A stretch of DNA of 64,000 nucleotides, taken from the NCBI GenBank assembly GCA_963676875.1, contig OY781436.1:2803281-2867280 (forward strand), read 5' to 3'. Numbering within the stretch: the first letter of the stretch is position 1; every line of letters starts with the position of its first letter. Both the position numbers and the translations under genes were made by a program. Below are positions 3,389-21,775 of this stretch, one piece after another. Origin of the DNA: Bacteroidales bacterium. GTDB taxonomy: Bacteria > Bacteroidota > Bacteroidia > Bacteroidales > F082. A model generated the notes under the pieces. That model was not told where the DNA came from and made no database searches. It saw only the letters and a list, made by a program, of their open reading frames with translations.

Positions 3389-5131
3389 ATGAAAGAAAAA
3401 AAATCTTCATCGGCAAGTCAATCATGGTGGCAATTATTGATCGTTATCGCCATCATCATCGTGATCAACATCATCAGCTCGTTTCTTTTCACACGCTTTG
3501 ATCTGACCAACGAAAAACGTTATACCCTTTCCAAAGAAACCCGCCAACTGATTGAAAACACTCAGGATATCGTCTATTTCCGTGTTTTTCTGGAAGGAGA
3601 TTTTCCGGCAGGATTTAAACGCCTGCGCCGCGAAACCCAGGAACTTCTGGACGAATTTCGGGCTTACAACAAAAACATCGCCTACGAATTTATCAATCCT
3701 TCGGCCAGCGAGGACCCCAAGGAACGCAACGCCACCTACCAATTGCTGGTGCAACAGGGCTTGCAGCCCACCAACCTTCAGGTAAAAACAAAAAACGGCA
3801 TGGAGCAACAGGTGATTTTCCCCGGTGTACTGGTGTCGTATCGCAACAGGGATGTGGCGGTGGAATTGCTTGATGCACAAATGAATGTGCCACCCGAGGC
3901 CGTATTGAATAATTCGATTAACAACCTGGAATTTAAATTGGCCAGTGCCATTCGCAAAATTACTCGGGTAAGAAAACCTACAGTTGCCTTTATTGAAGGT
4001 CATGGCGAACTCGACGATCAGGATACCTACGACCTCACACAAGCGTTGAAAGAAGATTACGTGGTAGATCGCGTGACCATCAACAATCAACTGAATGCAT
4101 TGGTAAACAGATCTTTGATTGACTCTACCACCAACCATTGGGAAATTACACCCAAATACGCGGCCATCATTATTGCACAACCCGATTCTTCCTTCGACGG
4201 AAAAGACCGGTTCATCATCGATCAATACCTGATGTATGGTGGAAAAATCCTTTGGTTTGTAGATCCTGTGCTGGCGAGCATGGACAGCACCCAAAATTCA
4301 GGATCCACCGTGGCCATCGACAAAGGTCTGGATTTACAGGCACAACTTTTCACTTACGGAGTGAGGCTCAACAGCAACCTGATCATGGATTTAAGTGCCA
4401 ATTCCATTCCGGTTCGAACGGGTCAGATGGGCAATCAGCCGCAAATAGAGTTTTTTCCGTGGTATTATTTCCCTGTTATAACACCCACCAGTACCCACCC
4501 CATTGCCAAAAACCTGAATGCCATCAAAACACAGTTTGTGAGCAGCATCGATACCCTTTCCACAAAAAATGTGAAGAAGACCGTTCTGTTAAGCACCTCA
4601 CCCTACTCACGAATTGAAGATGTTCCGGCCATCATCAGCTTGTCCATTCTGAGCAAACAGCCCGACCCACGGCAATATACCACCCCTCCACAAGCCGTTG
4701 CCGTACTACTCGAAGGTACCTTTCTGTCGGATTTCAGAAACCGCATACCTCCTGAAATCATGAACGATAAGGGCATTGGTTTTCGTGAAGAAAGCGTTCC
4801 AACTGCCATGTTGGTGGTATCGGATGGCGACCTGATTCGAAACCAGTTTAAAATACCTGATGGATATCCCCTTCCGTTGGGATACGACCAATATACACGC
4901 GAAACCTTTGGTAACAAAGATTTTGTGCTCAATGCCATCAACTACCTCACCGAAGGCCCCGGGTTGATTTCGGTGCGATCGCGCGAAACCAAACTCAGGT
5001 TGCTCGACCGGGCCAAAATAAACGACCATCGCATGAGATGGCAATTGCTGAATGTGTTGGCTCCATTGCTGTTGGTTATTGTGGTTGGATTGCTGATTAT
5101 ATTCCTACGTAAAAGAAAATATGCCAGATAG
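3389..5131 (+). CDS. gldG: Gliding-associated ABC transporter auxiliary/substrate-binding component GldG-like
   Basis: 580 aa with an N-terminal and a C-terminal TM anchor around a large extracytoplasmic domain. Its size and its position after gldF fit GldG. Confidence 0.8.
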   Translation: MKEKKSSSASQSWWQLLIVIAIIIVINIISSFLFTRFDLTNEKRYTLSKETRQLIENTQDIVYFRVFLEGDFPAGFKRLRRETQELLDEFRAYNKNIAYEFINPSASEDPKERNATYQLLVQQGLQPTNLQVKTKNGMEQQVIFPGVLVSYRNRDVAVELLDAQMNVPPEAVLNNSINNLEFKLASAIRKITRVRKPTVAFIEGHGELDDQDTYDLTQALKEDYVVDRVTINNQLNALVNRSLIDSTTNHWEITPKYAAIIIAQPDSSFDGKDRFIIDQYLMYGGKILWFVDPVLASMDSTQNSGSTVAIDKGLDLQAQLFTYGVRLNSNLIMDLSANSIPVRTGQMGNQPQIEFFPWYYFPVITPTSTHPIAKNLNAIKTQFVSSIDTLSTKNVKKTVLLSTSPYSRIEDVPAIISLSILSKQPDPRQYTTPPQAVAVLLEGTFLSDFRNRIPPEIMNDKGIGFREESVPTAMLVVSDGDLIRNQFKIPDGYPLPLGYDQYTRETFGNKDFVLNAINYLTEGPGLISVRSRETKLRLLDRAKINDHRMRWQLLNVLAPLLLVIVVGLLIIFLRKRKYAR

Positions 5132-5139
5132 TTACAGAT

Positions 5140-6198
5140 ATGAATAAAAACAGAAGATATATCGTAGTATTGTTGTTGCTCGTGGTTGCAGCCATTTTTA
5201 TGTATACCCAGCAACGAAATTCCACCCTTAAAAAACAGGAGTCTGACTTTTCAGTGGAAGACACCTCTACCGTAAACAAGATATTCATTGCCGACAAGCG
5301 TATGAATCAGATTACACTTGAACGCACACCCAAAGGATGGATACTTGATGGCAACCAGAAGGTAAATCAGCAATTGGTACATAAACTTTTGGGAACCATG
5401 CACCGTATAAAGGTGCAAGCTCCGGTATCTAAAGTTAGCTTCGAAAATGTCGTGAAACGTATGGCCTCCATTGCCATCAAGGTGGAAGTATATCAGGAGG
5501 TGTACCGTATCGATTGGTTCGACAAAATCAAACTTTTTAAACACCAAAAATTGACCAAGGTTTTTTACATTGGCGACGCTACTGCTAATAACCTGGGTAC
5601 CTACATGCTAATGGAGGGTGCCTCGCAACCTTATATCACGTATATTCCCGGATTCAGAGGCTTTTTAACTCCCCGGTTCTCGCCCCTACCCGATGACTGG
5701 AAGAGCCACGAAGTATTTAGATATCAACTTTCTGACATTAAAAGTGTTCAATTTAATGTGCCCGAGCAACCCGAAGAGAGTTTTAAAATAGAAGTGAAAG
5801 ATGATGCAGGTAACTACCAGCTAACACAAATAAGTACCCAACAAACCATTGATAATTTCGATACGTTAAAGGTATTGAATTTGCTTACTTCCTTTTCCGA
5901 TGTGCGTTACGAAACACGACTGAACAACCTGATGGCCAAAGTACGCATCGATTCTGTTTTGAACTCACCTCCCCGGTTTGAACTCACTCTGGTAGATCAG
6001 CAGAACGACACCAACTACGTTAAAATGTTCCGCAAAGGTGCTCTCCCCGATCAAGTGGCACAGGCAGGCTACAATCCGGAAGTACCTGTTGATAACGACC
6101 GATTTTACGGATTGGTAAACAATGGTGAAGATTTTGTGTTGCTACAATATTTTGTGTTCGACAAACTGCTTAAACCACTGAGTTACTACGAGAAGTAA
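5140..6198 (+). CDS. DUF4340-like protein (usual partner of gldG)
   Basis: 352 aa with an N-terminal TM anchor (IVVLLLLVVAAIFMY). Follows gldG by 9 nt. Confidence 0.6.
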   Translation: MNKNRRYIVVLLLLVVAAIFMYTQQRNSTLKKQESDFSVEDTSTVNKIFIADKRMNQITLERTPKGWILDGNQKVNQQLVHKLLGTMHRIKVQAPVSKVSFENVVKRMASIAIKVEVYQEVYRIDWFDKIKLFKHQKLTKVFYIGDATANNLGTYMLMEGASQPYITYIPGFRGFLTPRFSPLPDDWKSHEVFRYQLSDIKSVQFNVPEQPEESFKIEVKDDAGNYQLTQISTQQTIDNFDTLKVLNLLTSFSDVRYETRLNNLMAKVRIDSVLNSPPRFELTLVDQQNDTNYVKMFRKGALPDQVAQAGYNPEVPVDNDRFYGLVNNGEDFVLLQYFVFDKLLKPLSYYEK

Positions 6199-6323
6199 TA
6201 CCGATTATGAATTGAAATGAGCTTTAAGTTCCCTTCGCTCCTGAAACCTCCTCAATTCTATATTGGCATTATACATAAACAGCGTAGTGCTAACTTCAAT
6301 TTATAGTTGGTATAATTCCAATA

Positions 6324-10349: not shown

Positions 10350-11930
10350 TCATCGACTTAAAATAATTTTCCCGGAAGATATCTTTTTATCAACATCCGT
10401 AAAGCGATACAGATAAATGCCATCGGGATAACCGGACAAATCAAGTGCCGTTTCTTTTTCAGATATCATCTGTTTAACAACCACTTGTCCCAACCCATTG
10501 ACAATTTCAAGTGTTCCGGCAGATTCGTTAAGCAGGTGAATCGTCAGCTTATCCTGACAAGGATTGGGGAAAACCTTCACACTAGATTCGAGTGATTCAC
10601 TGACACTTCCGACGAAATCGATACAGCCTTCGCGGGTTTCCATGGTGGTGGGCGTAATAGTTAACGGAAGTGTGGATACCACTCCCGTGGCGGTAGTGAA
10701 AATGGGTGCGGATAAAAATTCAGATTGAATGGTATCAGTTGATGGAGACATCCCATCCTGCCCCACACAATCCAATCCATTGCCCATATCATCCATCTGA
10801 ATCAGGCCAATATTGTATATCGAATATGCTGCCTGACCTTTCACTCCCATGATGGGGCCATTGCCAAATGCCAGAAATTCGTTGTTTGGCGAAATGCAAA
10901 GGTCGATGGTGAGCAGAAATAAATTCTTGGCAAATTGATACTCGCCCAGTTCATTAAATTTGACCAACTTACTATAATAATCTCCACCGAATACGCCGAC
11001 AAAACCATCCGGTGTGGCGTGAAGTCTGGGTTCGATATCATACATATTACCCCATGGAATTTCGTTATAAGAATGAGCAGACAAAATACCGCCCAGGGTG
11101 TCAGTCGTTAGAAAAGACAGGGTTGATCCCGAATTTATACAGATATAATTTCGGTTTTGTGTGGCCAGGAAATTAATCGCATGGGTAGTGATACTGCTTC
11201 CTGTAGTGGAATAGCTGCGGCCAATATGAAACCCACCCGAAGGTGACAGCTTTAGTAAAATCGCTCTTTCAGTGGTATAAGAACCTTCAGATTTTGCGTT
11301 TCCCAGAACCAAATAGCCACCTCCCGGCGTTTGCTGAATGGAAACGGCATAAGTACCGTATTCACCCACCTGTATCACCTTGGTCCATTCCGGATTGCAG
11401 GATGTGTCGAGTTTGGACACCACTATTTTTGAATAGGGAGCGCTTGAGAAAGACGCACTTCCCAATACAACAAAACCCGAATCCATTGTTTGGAGGATGT
11501 CAACAGGGTAAATATCCAAACCATAGTCCACGGTTTTTGACCAAAGGGTATCACCCAAGGCATCCATTTTTACAAAAAAGGACAACACATCCCCACTCTC
11601 GGTGTAGGTATTACCTGAAATGAGAATGCATGAATCGTAGGTGGAGATGACTCTATTCATATTTAATGGGCGACCCCCGGTAGCTCTGGACAACACGCTG
11701 CTCCACAGCGGGTTGCCATCCAAATCGATGGCGCCAACCATAAACCCTGTCTGCGACCAATTATCACCTACAAAAAAGTAACTGTCGTGGTGTGTTGGTA
11801 ACATATCGTAAACCTGAATATCCTCCAGGTTTGCTCCCAAAAGAACCCGTGAAAATAATTCCGGTTGAGCTTGGAGTACCTGAAACAGACCAAAAATTGA
11901 TAACAAAGAAAGGAGCGCTAATTTTTTCAT
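10350..11930 (-). CDS. Secreted beta-propeller-repeat protein with T9SS C-terminal sorting domain
   Basis: Signal peptide MKKLALLSLLSIFGLFQVLQA. The C-terminus (VKVFPNPCQDKLTIHL...GIYLYRF...GKIILSR) is a typical T9SS CTD. Confidence 0.8.
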   Translation of the reverse strand: MKKLALLSLLSIFGLFQVLQAQPELFSRVLLGANLEDIQVYDMLPTHHDSYFFVGDNWSQTGFMVGAIDLDGNPLWSSVLSRATGGRPLNMNRVISTYDSCILISGNTYTESGDVLSFFVKMDALGDTLWSKTVDYGLDIYPVDILQTMDSGFVVLGSASFSSAPYSKIVVSKLDTSCNPEWTKVIQVGEYGTYAVSIQQTPGGGYLVLGNAKSEGSYTTERAILLKLSPSGGFHIGRSYSTTGSSITTHAINFLATQNRNYICINSGSTLSFLTTDTLGGILSAHSYNEIPWGNMYDIEPRLHATPDGFVGVFGGDYYSKLVKFNELGEYQFAKNLFLLTIDLCISPNNEFLAFGNGPIMGVKGQAAYSIYNIGLIQMDDMGNGLDCVGQDGMSPSTDTIQSEFLSAPIFTTATGVVSTLPLTITPTTMETREGCIDFVGSVSESLESSVKVFPNPCQDKLTIHLLNESAGTLEIVNGLGQVVVKQMISEKETALDLSGYPDGIYLYRFTDVDKKISSGKIILSR

Positions 11931-11976
11931 GACGATTGTTTTTGTTTTGTGCGACTGATATTTTGGGAAACCGATT

Positions 11977-11984
11977 CAAATGTA
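11977..11984 (-). promoter_or_regulatory. -7 box TACATTTG for the T9SS cargo gene
   Basis: Exact TAnnTTTG on the minus strand, 47 nt upstream of the ATG at 11930. It lies between that gene and the tandem array. Confidence 0.35.
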
Positions 11985-12080
11985 AAAAAAATTGGGGTAC
12001 AAGGGGTTGAAAATGATCGTTTTTAAAGGATTTTTGATGTTTCATCCACAGAATGATGGAGGGATAACAGACTATTGTGT

Positions 12081-14147
12081 TTACGACGGAATTACGACGG
12101 AATAAATTCCATCAATACTATTCAAGCGTGCCAATGGCACTGGCAAAAAAACTTTCAAAACACAAACCCACCGATCCCGGAACAAAACCCCAAAATGCCG
12201 GAGGCATGACCGACAATTATCCCCGGATTTTATCCCGGGACAGAGAAAGCCGACAGTTCTTTGTTACGACGGAATAAATTCCATCGATACTGTTCGAGCG
12301 TGCCAATGGCACTGGCAAAAAAACTTTCAAAACACAAACCCACCGATCCCGGAACAAAACCCCAAAATGCCGGAGGCATGACCGACAATTATCCCCGGAT
12401 TTTATCCCGGGACAGAGAAAGCCGACAGTTCTTTGTTACGACGGAATAAATTCCATCGATACTGTTCGAGCGTGCCAATGGCACTAGAAAAAAAACTTTC
12501 AAAACACAAAATCCACCAAACCCGTAACACCCCCCCAATGCCAGAGGCATGACCGACAATTATCCCCGGATTTTAATCCCGGGGATAGAAAAATCCAACA
12601 GTTCTTTTTTACGACGGAATAAATACCATCGATACTGTTCAAGCGTGCCAATGGCACTAGAAAAAAAACTTTCAAAACACAAAATCCACCGATCCCGGAA
12701 CAAAAACCCCAAATGCCGGAGGCATGACCGAATATTATCCCCGGATTTTAATCCCGGGGATAGAAAAATCCAACAGTTCTTTTTTACGACGGAATAAATT
12801 CCATCGATACTGTTCGAGCGTGCCAATGGCACTGGCAAAAAAAACTTTCAAAACACAAATCCACCGAACCCGGAACAAAAACCCCAAATGCCGGAGGCAT
12901 GACCGAATATTATCCCCGGATTTTAATCCCGGGACAGAGAAAGCCGACAGTTCTTTGTTACGACGGAATAAATTCCATCGATACCATTCTAGCGTGCCAT
13001 GGACACTGGCAAAAAACTTTCAAAACACAAACCCACCGATCCCGGAACAAAACCCCCCAATGCCGGAGGCATGACCGAATATTATCCCCGGATTTTAATC
13101 CCGGGGATAGAAAAATCCAACAGTTCTTTTTTACGACGGAATAAATTCCATCGATACTGTTCAATCGTGCCTATGGCACTGGCAAAAAACTTTCAAAACA
13201 CAAAATCCACTGATCCCGGAACAAAACCCCAAAATGCCGGAGGCATGACCGAATATTATCCCCGGATTTTAATCCCGGGACAGAGAAAGCCGACAGTTCT
13301 TTGTTACGACGGAATAAATTCCATCGATACCATTCTAGCGTGCCATGGAAACTGGCAAAAAAATTTCAAAACACAAACCCACCGATCCCGGAACAAAACC
13401 CCCCAATGCCGGAGGCATGACCGAATATTATCCCCGGATTTTAATCCCGGGACAGAGAAAGCCGACAGTTCTTTGTTACGACGGAATAAATTCCATCGAT
13501 ACCATTCTAGCGTGCCATGGAAACTGGCAAAAAAATTTCAAAACACAAAATCCACCGATCCCGGAACAAAAACCCCAAATGCCGGAGGCATGACCGAATA
13601 TTATCCCCGGATTTTAATCCCGGGGATAGAAAAATCCAACAGTTTTTTGTTACGACGGAATAAATTCCATCGATACTGTTCGAGCGTGCCAATGGCACTG
13701 GCAAAAAAAACTTTCAAAACACAAATCCACCGAACCCGGAACAAAAACCCCAAATGCCGGAGGCATGACCGAATATTATCCCCGGATTTTAATCCCGGGA
13801 CAGAGAAAGCCGACAGTTCTTTGTTACGACGGAATAAATTCCATCGATACTGTTCGAGCGTGCCATGGACACTGGCAAAAAAATTTCAAAACACAAACCC
13901 ACCGATCCCGGAACAAAACCCCCCAATGCCGGAGGCGTGACCGACAATTATCCCCGGATTTTAATCCCGGGACAGAAAAATCCAACAGTTCTTTTTTACG
14001 ACGGAATAAATACCATCGATACTGTTCAAGCGTGCCAATGGCACTGGCAAAAAAAACTTTCAAAACACAAAATCCACTGATCCCGGAACAAAACCCCCAA
14101 ATGCCGGAGGCATGACCGACAATTATCCCCGGATTTTAATCCCGGGG
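12081..14147. repeat. Tandem array of 12 units of ~173 bp (172-175 bp), non-coding and hairpin-bearing
   Basis: TTACGACGGAATAAAT recurs at 12092, 12264, 12436, 12609, 12784, 12958, 13131, 13304, 13476, 13650, 13824 and 13996. An 11-bp stutter sits at 12081 and the last unit is truncated at ~14147. Every unit carries the palindromes GTGCC-AAT-GGCAC and CCCCGG-ATTTTAATC-CCGGGG (e.g. 12739-12759). Confidence 0.95.
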
Positions 14148-14160
14148 CTCCTCCGGGCTT

Positions 14161-14197
14161 AAAAACAAAAAAAGCACCCGAACCAAGTCCGGATGCT
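14161..14197 (-). terminator. Intrinsic terminator of the flavoprotein operon
   Basis: Minus strand reads AGCATCCG-GACTTGGTT-CGGGTGCT followed by TTTTTTTGTTTTT. It lies 28 nt after the stop at 14225. Confidence 0.65.
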
Positions 14198-14224
14198 TTT
14201 GTGTTCTTATCGAAAAACCATTTG

Positions 14225-15223
14225 TTACTTGTAATCGCCGAAATACTTCATAAACTGCAATCGTTCGTACACCTCCGGATTTACGCTTTTGGCCTGACTG
14301 AGTCGTCCGCGAAACTGGTGGATGGTTTCAAAACCTTTTCCTTCCATCCAACGACGGACAAACGACAACACCTCAGCAATATGGGCCGGTCCATGCTGGT
14401 AGAGGGCAGATGCCATTTGAACCACGGTAGCGCCGGCAAGCAGTTGTTTCACCACAGCTTCGCCATCGTGGATACCGGTGGTGGCAGCTAAATCCATATT
14501 CACGCGCTTGGCCATCATAGCTATCCAACGAAGTGAGTTGGCCATCTCCACCGGGGAGCTCATCACGTCGGCCACGGTGGTTTTCATGTTATAAATATCA
14601 ATATCGGGACTGCTAAAACGGTTGAAGAGCACCACCCCATCGGCCTTATTTTCTTCCAGCCCTTTGATTACACTTCCCAGGTTGCTGAAGTAGGGACTTA
14701 TTTTAACCGACACCGGAATACGCACGGCGGCCTTTACCTTTTTCAACACGTTGTAATACACTTTCTCATTGCCATCGCAGGTATTGTTTAAGTTGAAAGG
14801 CATCACAAAAATGTTGAGCTCCAGCGCATCGGCTCCGGCTTTTTCCATTTGTTTGGCAAAGTTGGTCCACTCCAACGACGACATGCAGTTGATGCTCGCG
14901 ATGATGGGTATTTTCACTTCATTTTTGGCCTGTTCAATCATCTTGAGGGCTTTGCCCAATTCTTCCTCTTTGATATGAACATCCACGTAATCAAATGTTT
15001 CGCTATAATCCACAAAGAGTTCACCATGTTCTTCGGCTTTGCGCACGCGGTAGTCGCCTTCCATCAAAATTTGCTCTTCAAACAAGGATTTCAAAACCAC
15101 GGCTCCGGCTCCATGTTTTTCCAGTTCCACAATTTTTTTTACTGAGTCGGTAAGTCCTGAACTGGCTACCACCAGTGGATTGCGTAGGTTTAGTCCAAGA
15201 TATCTTGTATTCAAATCTGCCAT
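14225..15223 (-). CDS. Dihydroorotate dehydrogenase-like (class-1 DHOD/PreA-like TIM-barrel flavoprotein)
   Basis: 332 aa. The N-terminus (YLGLNLRNPLVVASSGLT...HGAGAVVLKSLFEEQ) is typical of the DHOD-like family. Last gene of the operon. Confidence 0.75.
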   Translation of the reverse strand: MADLNTRYLGLNLRNPLVVASSGLTDSVKKIVELEKHGAGAVVLKSLFEEQILMEGDYRVRKAEEHGELFVDYSETFDYVDVHIKEEELGKALKMIEQAKNEVKIPIIASINCMSSLEWTNFAKQMEKAGADALELNIFVMPFNLNNTCDGNEKVYYNVLKKVKAAVRIPVSVKISPYFSNLGSVIKGLEENKADGVVLFNRFSSPDIDIYNMKTTVADVMSSPVEMANSLRWIAMMAKRVNMDLAATTGIHDGEAVVKQLLAGATVVQMASALYQHGPAHIAEVLSFVRRWMEGKGFETIHQFRGRLSQAKSVNPEVYERLQFMKYFGDYK

Positions 15224-21440: not shown

Positions 21441-21711
21441 TCACGAAGTTCCACGGAGAGGTCACGAAGTTTAACGGAGTGGTTAGCAACGTTTTATCAT
21501 GCATTTGTAAAGAAAAACATTGTTGTCCGGTAAAATTAAACAGAAAACGCTACAATGCTTGCTATATATTGCGTCCCTACGGGACTTCACTACAGTGGGG
21601 GTTGTTTCATATTCTACCCATATTTAGCCCCTGACGGGGCTGTCCCGTAGGGACAAGGTGTTGGTAGAATGCAAATTAAGGTCTCCAAAAAGTCCCGTAG
21701 GGACGATATAT
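21441..21711. repeat. REP/MITE-like palindromic element in the operon upstream region
   Basis: Direct repeat TCACGAAGTTnnACGGAG x2 (21441-21458, 21462-21479). Palindrome GTCCCTACGGGAC at 21573-21585, with its reverse complement at 21642-21654 and 21692-21704. AGCCCC-TGAC-GGGGCT at 21626-21641. The outer arms TATATATTGCGTCCCTACGGGAC and GTCCCGTAGGGACGATATAT are inverted copies. Confidence 0.7.
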
Positions 21712-21775
21712 TTTTTTACCGGACATCATTGAAAGAGAAATACAAACTCAACACCAACAACGAAATCCGGGAAAA

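Follow-up and report, generated by a model that had tools for sequence, protein, structure and literature searches.

The 64-kb window analysed here (64,000 nt of Bacteroidales contig OY781436.1) contains an intergenic array of 12 hairpin-bearing tandem units. We conclude that the array most likely belongs to the Acido-Lenti-1 repeat family (RF01687), as a member that has diverged in Bacteroidales, and is arranged in the manner of a REPIN (repetitive extragenic palindrome [REP] doublet forming a hairpin) or BIME (bacterial interspersed mosaic element) cluster. The anatomy of its modules and their relationship to Acido-Lenti-1 can be stated with high confidence, and action of the modules at the DNA level appears probable. 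With less assurance, we lean toward the fuller reading that the array is a selfish cluster of REPIN/BIME-like DNA repeats, on which a Y1 (HUH) enzyme may act and which has expanded through unequal recombination. The array lies in a hypervariable intergenic site.

Anatomy of the repeat unit

Tandem Repeats Finder (TRF) reported a period of 172, 11.9 copies and 92% matches, and alignment with an identity matrix resolved 12 head-to-tail units of 172–175 bp that are pairwise 88–100% alike. The 16-mer TTACGACGGAATAAAT occurs 12 times on the plus strand at spacings of 172–175 and nowhere else in the window (chance expectation 0.05). The unit number and period given by the original prediction are thereby confirmed, and its hand count of bases in unit 12264–12435 (A58 C48 G34 T32) is exact. 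The final unit is incomplete and ends after the CCCGGG hairpin.

The units were dissected with two covariance models. R1 was built from Bacteroidota modules, and R2 only from beta (opposite-strand) modules of a second Bacteroidales metagenome-assembled genome (MAG; locus L032), the Bacteroidetes MAG Loclat_bin-03441 (Loclat) and locus L017, with zero window sequences. Because R2 recovers 12 minus-strand alpha and 12 plus-strand beta modules in the window, the unit is an inverted beta/alpha pair. Beyond the array, the 64-kb window holds no further module copy save two weak R2 matches at 21.6–21.7 kb (E 0.03–0.1). Alpha modules scored 57–67 bits with R1 and 28.6–41.6 bits with R2, and beta modules 24–38.7 bits with R2 (E 3e-8 to 2e-4); the beta matches are 49 nt long except those at 13306–13337 and 13478–13509 (32 nt).

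Each unit reads beta(+), a 50-nt spacer, alpha(−) and a linker of ~24 nt, the two ~49-nt modules being opposite in orientation and convergent (3'-to-3'). Both share one plan, namely an 8-bp GC-rich hairpin, a conserved linker of 13–14 nt, a 5-bp RUGCC-NNN-GGCAY hairpin and then U/T. The earlier view of the repeat as a single unit therefore gives way to that of an inverted module pair from a widespread known family. Every unit contains the three palindromes listed previously. CCCCGG..CCGGGG corresponds to alpha's first hairpin (CCCGGG type), and CGACGGAAT.. together with GTGCC-AAT-GGCAC supplies both hairpins of beta. A fourth palindrome, ATGCC-GGA-GGCAT, had been overlooked; it forms alpha's second hairpin. 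Almost all of the 12 units have kept their hairpins intact.

Covariation of the hairpins, which had been put forward as a check, was assessed in 50 Bacteroidota modules. In this alignment, which was model-fitted and so somewhat favours structure, 96.7% of cells were paired and compensatory changes occurred at 10 of 13 pairs; none of 500 shuffles reached the module value, and slid controls were 25–51% paired. The inverted module linkers can also be laid against each other as a long-range helix, matching at 13 of 14 positions in L032 and with 3–5 mismatches in the window. This helix ('P1') was considered as a sign of one compact RNA and rejected, since it is simply the two inverted module linkers. 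A whole-unit RNAalifold fold that pairs hairpin D with hairpin A had zero compensatory support and was not adopted.

The inter-module spacer is the part that varies between strains and genomes (50 nt in the window versus 16–19 nt in L032, Loclat and L017). Within the window spacer at 13182–13231, the extra ~33 nt (minus reading UUCCGGGAUCGGUGG) contain CCGGGAU-CGGU, which by eye looks like a collapsed alpha-module remnant (hairpin arm and linker end). Two types of alpha-to-beta linker occur, GACAGAGAAAGCCGACAGTTCTTTG and GATAGAAAAATCCAACAGTTCTTTT, when counting starts at the final base of the alpha match. Over the first 150 nt compared, units 5 and 10 are identical, and the array matches itself best at an offset of 866 bp, or five units. 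These results suggest that the array grew via unequal recombination or slippage.

The family in other genomes, the syntenic site and Y1 genes

Alpha aligned end to end (1–46) with Rfam RF01687 at 19.5 bits (E 0.028 in a 361-nt search), below the gathering cut-off of 37 bits, and an Rfam search at the gathering threshold gave no match in the window. Relatives that share the alpha 20-mer reach the cut-off, at 37.0–37.4 bits (L019, L026 and L017; Algoriphagus and Dyadobacter). This minus-strand 20-mer, TCGGTCATGCCTCCGGCATT, was found at 18 loci in a scan of one genome per species, against ~1 expected by a rough estimate, and is identical across orders of Bacteroidota. The loci include seven contigs of Loclat, several Algoriphagus species, Dyadobacter luticola and Aquiflexum; copy number is at least seven loci in Loclat and at least two in Algoriphagus sp. 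4150. Homologous units elsewhere, whose absence had been named as one of the grounds for regarding the array as a neutral satellite, thus exist.

Acido-Lenti-1 was described as a likely RNA, not cis-regulatory and of unassigned function, in Acidobacteria and Lentisphaerae (Weinberg 2010, PMC2864571). The window modules share with it the two-hairpin plan (8-bp hairpin, ~12-nt linker, 5-bp hairpin with a 3-nt loop, 3' U), AUGCC and GUGCC/GUGCU types of the second hairpin, covariation, multi-copy intergenic occurrence, variable relation to neighbouring genes and frequent tandem copies, those of the seed genome being often tandem or alternating. They differ in score (19.5 bits versus 37), in host phylum (Bacteroidota versus Acidobacteria or Lentisphaerae) and in that Rfam models a single 46-nt module as a small RNA (sRNA), whereas the unit here is an inverted doublet.

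Across several phyla the family takes the form of single modules, inverted doublets and tandem or alternating arrays. L032 carries a 139-bp tandem array of five copies with the same four hairpins. Convergent doublets with a 16–19-nt gap were found with R1 in L032, all seven Loclat contigs and Dyadobacter; in all, four other genomes have convergent doublets, and the inverted doublets and alternating clusters typical of REPs and BIMEs are thus present. In L032, Loclat and L017, both strands carry well-preserved modules. In L019 (Algoriphagus sp. 4150), TRF found a 417-bp tandem repeat at 5293–6235, and cmsearch placed full-scoring modules at 5013 and, shortly after the end of the TRF interval, at 6322 and 6733 (a spacing of 411 nt), only weak matches inside the interval, and two further copies at 187 and 622. 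The Rfam seed itself lists ~55 Lentisphaera araneosa copies, of which many are tandem, 69–240 nt apart; in its run NZ_ABCK01000016.1 15912–16336 the copies switch orientation in turn, and their second hairpins are of the AUGCC and GUGCU types. Large head-to-tail arrays had been called uncommon in bacterial chromosomes; this claim is weakened because the same family forms arrays, with spacings of 69–435 nt, in Lentisphaera, Algoriphagus and another Bacteroidales MAG. In other genomes the modules are intergenic; most lie downstream of a gene, in unidirectional or convergent gaps, and their orientation to neighbouring genes varies (sense in the window, antisense in L032).

Most of the seven Loclat contigs (L016, L018, L020, L021, L025, L029, L031) have G+C-rich minisatellites beside the doublet on one or both sides, with periods of 32–51 nt and up to 9 copies (TRF reported none for L020). 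By eye, those on the two sides in L029 are roughly reverse complements. Several Loclat contigs end at the minisatellites, a layout reminiscent of the minisatellite of BrickBuilt, a MITE (miniature transposable element with inverted repeats) in Porphyromonas gingivalis.

Syntenic loci were reached through neighbouring proteins. L011, a 4.62-Mb contig, has flanks 95–97% identical in DNA but lacks the array; a PhdYeFM/YoeB toxin-antitoxin pair (L011:9152–9666) replaces window 12018–14164, and homology stops at window 14165. In L011 an inserted DDE transposase (DUF4372/DDE_Tnp_1; L011:6429–7613) also separates the 1215-aa oxidoreductase gene from the DHO_dh-like gene. In the more distantly related L001, a Bacteroidales UBA6244 MAG, the array site holds two genes. 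The window repeat is also found in L013 and L014, two metagenome contigs from the same protein cluster, and its promoter-proximal junction (12081–12091 in the window) is identical there; one inter-module spacer of L013 has had its middle ~32 nt replaced. L015 has a different tandem repeat of ~272 bp at the array site (L015:1–470; at least 1.7 copies, the contig beginning inside the repeat). Its segment UCACUCCGCCGGAGCUGAUGGGCUUUUGUUCC resembles the second hairpin and tail of alpha; homology of the 272-bp repeat to the window unit was rejected as not significant (score 43; shuffles 28 ± 5, maximum 51). Because the contents differ among L011, L001, L013, L014 and L015, the site is an insertion hotspot, and because relatives carry or lack the array at the same site, the array is strain-variable rather than an artefact.

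An IS200-like Y1_Tnp gene (Pfam 54 bits) lies at L014:114–535 between beta (left, hairpin B) and alpha (right, hairpin C), in the position of the window's alpha-to-beta linker. A second Y1 gene, in L025, has its C-terminus ~560 nt upstream of the Loclat doublet. Both have the C-terminal tail of TnpA_Y1 subclass 1.2, and the L014 protein also has the Y---Q--HH and WQ motifs. Subclass 1.2 is largely found in Bacteroidetes and Cyanobacteria, is low-copy and is not insertion sequence (IS)-like (PMC6006769). A search of viral contigs gave no relative of the L014 Y1 protein. From this gene arrangement, involvement of a Y1 enzyme in the module repeats is possible, though we would not call it likely.

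Searches of 72,556 plasmids and of phages with three units gave no match (blastn). The boundary motif TTACGACGGAATAAATNCCATC had no exact-pattern match in genome, viral or metagenome collections, and a second exact-pattern scan of the metagenome collection, for the hairpin-C motif, was also empty. The empty metagenome scans mean little, because L014, a contig from the Joint Genome Institute (JGI), contains both patterns yet falls outside that collection; L014 was obtained via protein look-up, and the collection it came from and the one scanned evidently overlap only partly.

Readings of the array

In the mechanism we propose, the modules would fold as hairpins in single-stranded DNA (ssDNA), and an HUH/Y1 enzyme of the IS200/RAYT (REP-associated tyrosine transposase) superfamily would recognise these hairpins, as is suggested by the TnpA_Y1 gene with subclass-1.2 motifs between beta and alpha in the L014 array. 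The enzyme would seed inverted doublets, and the array would then be enlarged by unequal recombination or slippage, to which the 5-unit segmental duplication points. Such an array would have no dedicated cellular role, the hairpins having at most side effects on transcription or DNA topology. The recurrence of the unit as an inverted doublet points to a DNA-level element. A REP/REPIN/BIME arrangement fits better than an RNA gene because modules occur on both strands, in convergent doublets and in alternating clusters, and because they occupy intergenic, mostly downstream sites with no fixed orientation, no promoter per unit and turnover between strains.

In E. coli, BIMEs form inverted doublets and alternating tandem clusters. 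REP/REPIN/BIME systems with RAYTs share with the modules described here the short extragenic palindromes, these arrangements, the mostly downstream sites and variation between strains. They are also associated with a low-copy HUH/Y1 gene flanked by the repeats, for which the candidates here are the L014 gene, beside a truncated hairpin B, and the L025 gene. The window modules differ in having two hairpins, in a much longer unit (172 bp) and in the lack of the unpaired GTAG or CGTC tag by which REPs are defined (PMC3733652). Hairpin B ends in CCGTCG, and membership among CGTC-tagged REPs was rejected, the CGTC being paired within the stem rather than an unpaired foot. The Y1 genes near modules, at two loci only, look like subclass 1.2 and not like RAYT class 2. 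In the IS200/IS605 elements, whose derivatives lacking a transposase are the PATEs (palindrome-associated transposable elements), a Y1 gene stands between two subterminal hairpin modules as in L014, and the array linker could be a remnant after gene loss; the L014 modules are inverted repeats as in REPtron/TIRtron, not distinct left- and right-end hairpins, and we found no evidence of multiple identical IS copies. Y1 genes of class 3 in Acidobacteria and Planctomycetes and of subclass 2.6 in Bacteroidetes are flanked by high-copy atypical hairpins (Quentin et al. 2018, PMC6006769). The overlap of the class 3 taxa with the phyla of Acido-Lenti-1 is a lead only, and the CnGA foot of class 3 is not evident in the window modules. 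The BrickBuilt MITE (PMC4596501) is likewise an intergenic Bacteroidales element with tandem internal repeats and small inverted-repeat ends, but its repeats are 23 nt long and unrelated in sequence to the window units. The broader idea that Acido-Lenti-1 as a whole would be the cognate ssDNA hairpin substrate of HUH/Y1 enzymes that so far lack a function (subclass 1.2 in Bacteroidota, perhaps class 3 in Acidobacteria and Planctomycetes) and not an RNA gene, with long arrays built by repeated Y1-mediated insertion of doublets side by side, is tentative and, in our judgement, doubtful.

Several observations weigh against the proposed cluster. Only two Y1 genes were seen near modules, a tblastn search with a Y1 transposase fragment matched nothing in the 64 kb, and no REPs or other repeats were reported for subclass 1.2 (PMC6006769). 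The L014 Y1 gene replaces ~27 nt including the 3' arm of hairpin B, and for this reason it could be an IS that merely landed in the array. Rfam, under the label 'sRNA', and Weinberg 2010 (PMC2864571) class Acido-Lenti-1 as likely RNA. On the alpha strand, the imperfect pairs of hairpins A and B show a G.U bias in the window lineage (24 G.U versus 5 A.C cells, few of them independent). This would suit a single transcribed strand, but we downgraded it as evidence for RNA, most of the counts being inherited. Behind alpha's second hairpin, every unit has a U-rich stretch like a weak terminator (19 terminator-like sites versus 4.7 expected). Finally, the L013 units carry a canonical TATTTTTG −7 box in the spacer, just upstream of hairpin A.

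The last four points favour instead a structured non-coding RNA, in which minus-strand transcription, by read-through or from weak internal promoters, would yield trans-acting RNAs of ~140–170 nt. The alpha strand is also the sense strand of both neighbouring genes, and the hairpins covary, although covariation is equally expected for ssDNA hairpins. We keep this RNA as the chief competing reading but consider it unlikely. No unit in the window or in L032 carries a −7 box; in the window, the Bacteroidota box TAnnTTTG is absent from the units on either strand, the only match in 11900–14260 on both strands being that of the type IX secretion system (T9SS)-cargo gene. Just upstream stands a strong terminator, the L032 motif runs antisense to the adjoining genes, and conserved modules on both strands in L032, Loclat and L017 are not explained by one transcribed strand. 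The array is also missing in the strain with flanks 95–97% identical. A scan for tRNA and tmRNA found none, and one for sigma-70 promoters gave 1 site versus 3.7 expected. The original prediction had named as an analogy, marking its use as inference, tandem sRNA genes such as NsiR1 of Anabaena, where ~12 tandem non-coding units lie upstream of a gene. In NsiR1 each unit has a promoter and a terminator, whereas the window units have no promoter and only a weak terminator-like hairpin; with modules on both strands and an antisense array in L032, the analogy is not supported.

A neutral satellite would have arisen from one decayed doublet by local slippage or unequal crossing-over, with neither enzyme recognition nor function. 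Such an origin would suit the degraded beta modules (24–39 bits against 57–67 for alpha, compared with L032), the 3–5 mismatches in the window helix of the inverted linkers, the 5-unit segmental duplication, the polymorphism of the locus between strains and the lack of other copies in the 64-kb window. It fits poorly with an alpha 20-mer identical across orders, with hairpins intact in nearly all units and with an array that persists with the same edge junction in three sources, and we regard it as distinctly unlikely. It overlaps the REPIN/BIME-like reading, the one difference being whether the modules are still recognised.

A protein-binding or regulatory DNA array, either a centromere like sopC, which the original prediction had also named as an analogy, or an insulator or enhancer of the T9SS-cargo gene, is very improbable. 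The perfect short palindromes at a regular period just upstream of a promoter would suit such a role. However, the locus lies on a chromosome and varies between strains, the flanking genes examined include no partition or regulator gene, and 72,556 plasmids hold no similar DNA, so that the partition genes and the plasmid or origin context of sopC/parS arrays are missing; the T9SS gene has a near-identical promoter region without the array in L011 and L015, and the usual place of the family in other genomes is downstream of genes, in unidirectional or convergent gaps.

An assembly artefact or a cryptic repeat-protein gene is scarcely credible: long tandem repeats do assemble with errors and a 313-aa open reading frame (ORF; 12999–13940, plus strand) spans 5.5 units, but the units differ in a structured way and are not identical copies, the same units occur in L013 and L014, and the ORF shifts frame from unit to unit. 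The structured differences, and the recurrence of the units at the same site in these independent metagenome contigs, make an assembly artefact unlikely and also answer a doubt that had been raised earlier. No reading frame is conserved across units, most unit lengths not being multiples of 3, in agreement with the original description of the array as non-coding. The sole match of the 313-aa ORF among 5.8 billion proteins is itself. Its match to Pfam KDM6_C-hel, the precomputed label under which public protein collections list it as P0144, was rejected as spurious, a sum of sub-threshold fragments; with frame drift, no homologue and no genuine domain, the coding hypothesis was rejected. Exact-sequence look-ups of the window's own proteins found none on record.

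Genomic setting and significance

The genes flanking the array are all on the minus strand (Table 1). An operon of NuoF-like, GltD-like and molybdopterin oxidoreductase genes ends with the dihydroorotate-dehydrogenase-like gene; its terminator directly precedes the first alpha module, and the T9SS-cargo gene follows the array. Terminator, promoter box and T9SS-cargo gene stand as originally described, and the array does fill an intergenic gap; ~107 bp of unique, non-repeat sequence separates it from the promoter box. The box is conserved in L011, L013, L014 and L015. The neighbours are oxidoreductase, T9SS-cargo and FKBP genes; no partition genes and, as had been noted, no cas, reverse transcriptase, integrase or transposase genes are among the flanking genes examined (~5–21 kb). 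The array also has no unique spacers of the kind that define a CRISPR array, as noted before, the entire 172-bp period being repeated.

Table 1. Positions of the array, its modules and its flanking features in the window.
Feature	Position	Strand	Basis
Whole array	12092..14146	none	TRF, repeat-family search, unit alignment, identity matrix
Unit starts	12092, 12264, 12436, 12609, 12784, 12958, 13131, 13304, 13476, 13650, 13824, 13996		
Partial duplication TTACGACGGAA of unit start, promoter-proximal array edge	12081..12091	+	sequence; alignment of L013; L014 sequence
Beta module, unit 1: GACGGAAU-AAA-UUCCAUC hairpin, 13-nt linker, GUGCC-AAU-GGCAC, U	12094..12142	+	R2
Other beta starts	12266, 12438, 12611, 12786, 12960, 13133, 13306, 13478, 13652, 13826, 13998	+	R2
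Alpha module, unit 1: CCCGGGAU-loop-AUCCGGGG hairpin, 13-nt linker AUAAUUGUCGGUC, AUGCC-UCC-GGCAU, U	12193..12241	−	R1, R2, RF01687
Other alpha modules	12365-12413, 12536-12584, 12711-12759, 12886-12934, 13058-13106, 13232-13280	−	R1, R2
Further alpha modules	13404-13452, 13577-13625, 13752-13800, 13924-13972, 14099-14147	−	R1, R2
Inter-module spacer (example), 50 nt between beta and alpha 3' ends	13182..13231	none	minus reading GGGGUUUUGUUCCGGGAUC..UUUUGAAAGUUUUUUGCCA
Alpha-to-next-beta linker (example), ~23-25 nt	13281..13303	none	unit alignment, L014 junctions
Upstream gene, dihydroorotate-dehydrogenase-like protein, last of operon	14225..15223	−	Pfam; synteny in L001-L011
Intrinsic terminator of oxidoreductase operon, 14-bp stem and T run	14170..14200	−	terminator scan
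TACATTTG −7 box of T9SS-cargo gene	11977..11984	−	TAnnTTTG scan
Downstream gene, 526-aa protein with T9SS C-terminal sorting domain (Por_Secre_tail)	10350..11930	−	Pfam PF18962, E 5.5e-12

The two weak R2 matches, on opposite strands, belong to a second small cluster at 21552–21723, in a 513-nt gap between a PPDK_N-type gene and a NuoE-like gene. It has three GTCCC-NNN-GGGAC hairpins (21573–21585, 21642–21654 and 21692–21704; 0.11 expected by chance) plus GCCCCTGACGGGGC, and its sequence resembles the 3' half of Acido-Lenti-1 (UAUAUUGC-GUCCCUACGGGAC-U). Among relatives, one such hairpin was found at L011:32 and none in L001, L003 or L005.

An apparently exotic array is thus reduced to the local amplification of a catalogued, functionally orphan repeat family, and modules of the Acido-Lenti-1 type reach into Bacteroidota, below the Rfam threshold. 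There, the modules are typically inverted doublets on opposite strands and alternating arrays, which fits a DNA-level REP/BIME-like element better than an sRNA. Module arrays also have practical consequences. They break short-read assemblies, L013 and several Loclat contigs ending in arrays, and they yield spurious ORF calls such as the 313-aa 'protein' that sits in public databases. The subclass-1.2-like Y1 genes beside modules at two loci suggest a partner for an enzyme subclass reported without repeats. If Acido-Lenti-1 is indeed a Y1 substrate, it would represent a new REP-RAYT-like system outside Proteobacteria.

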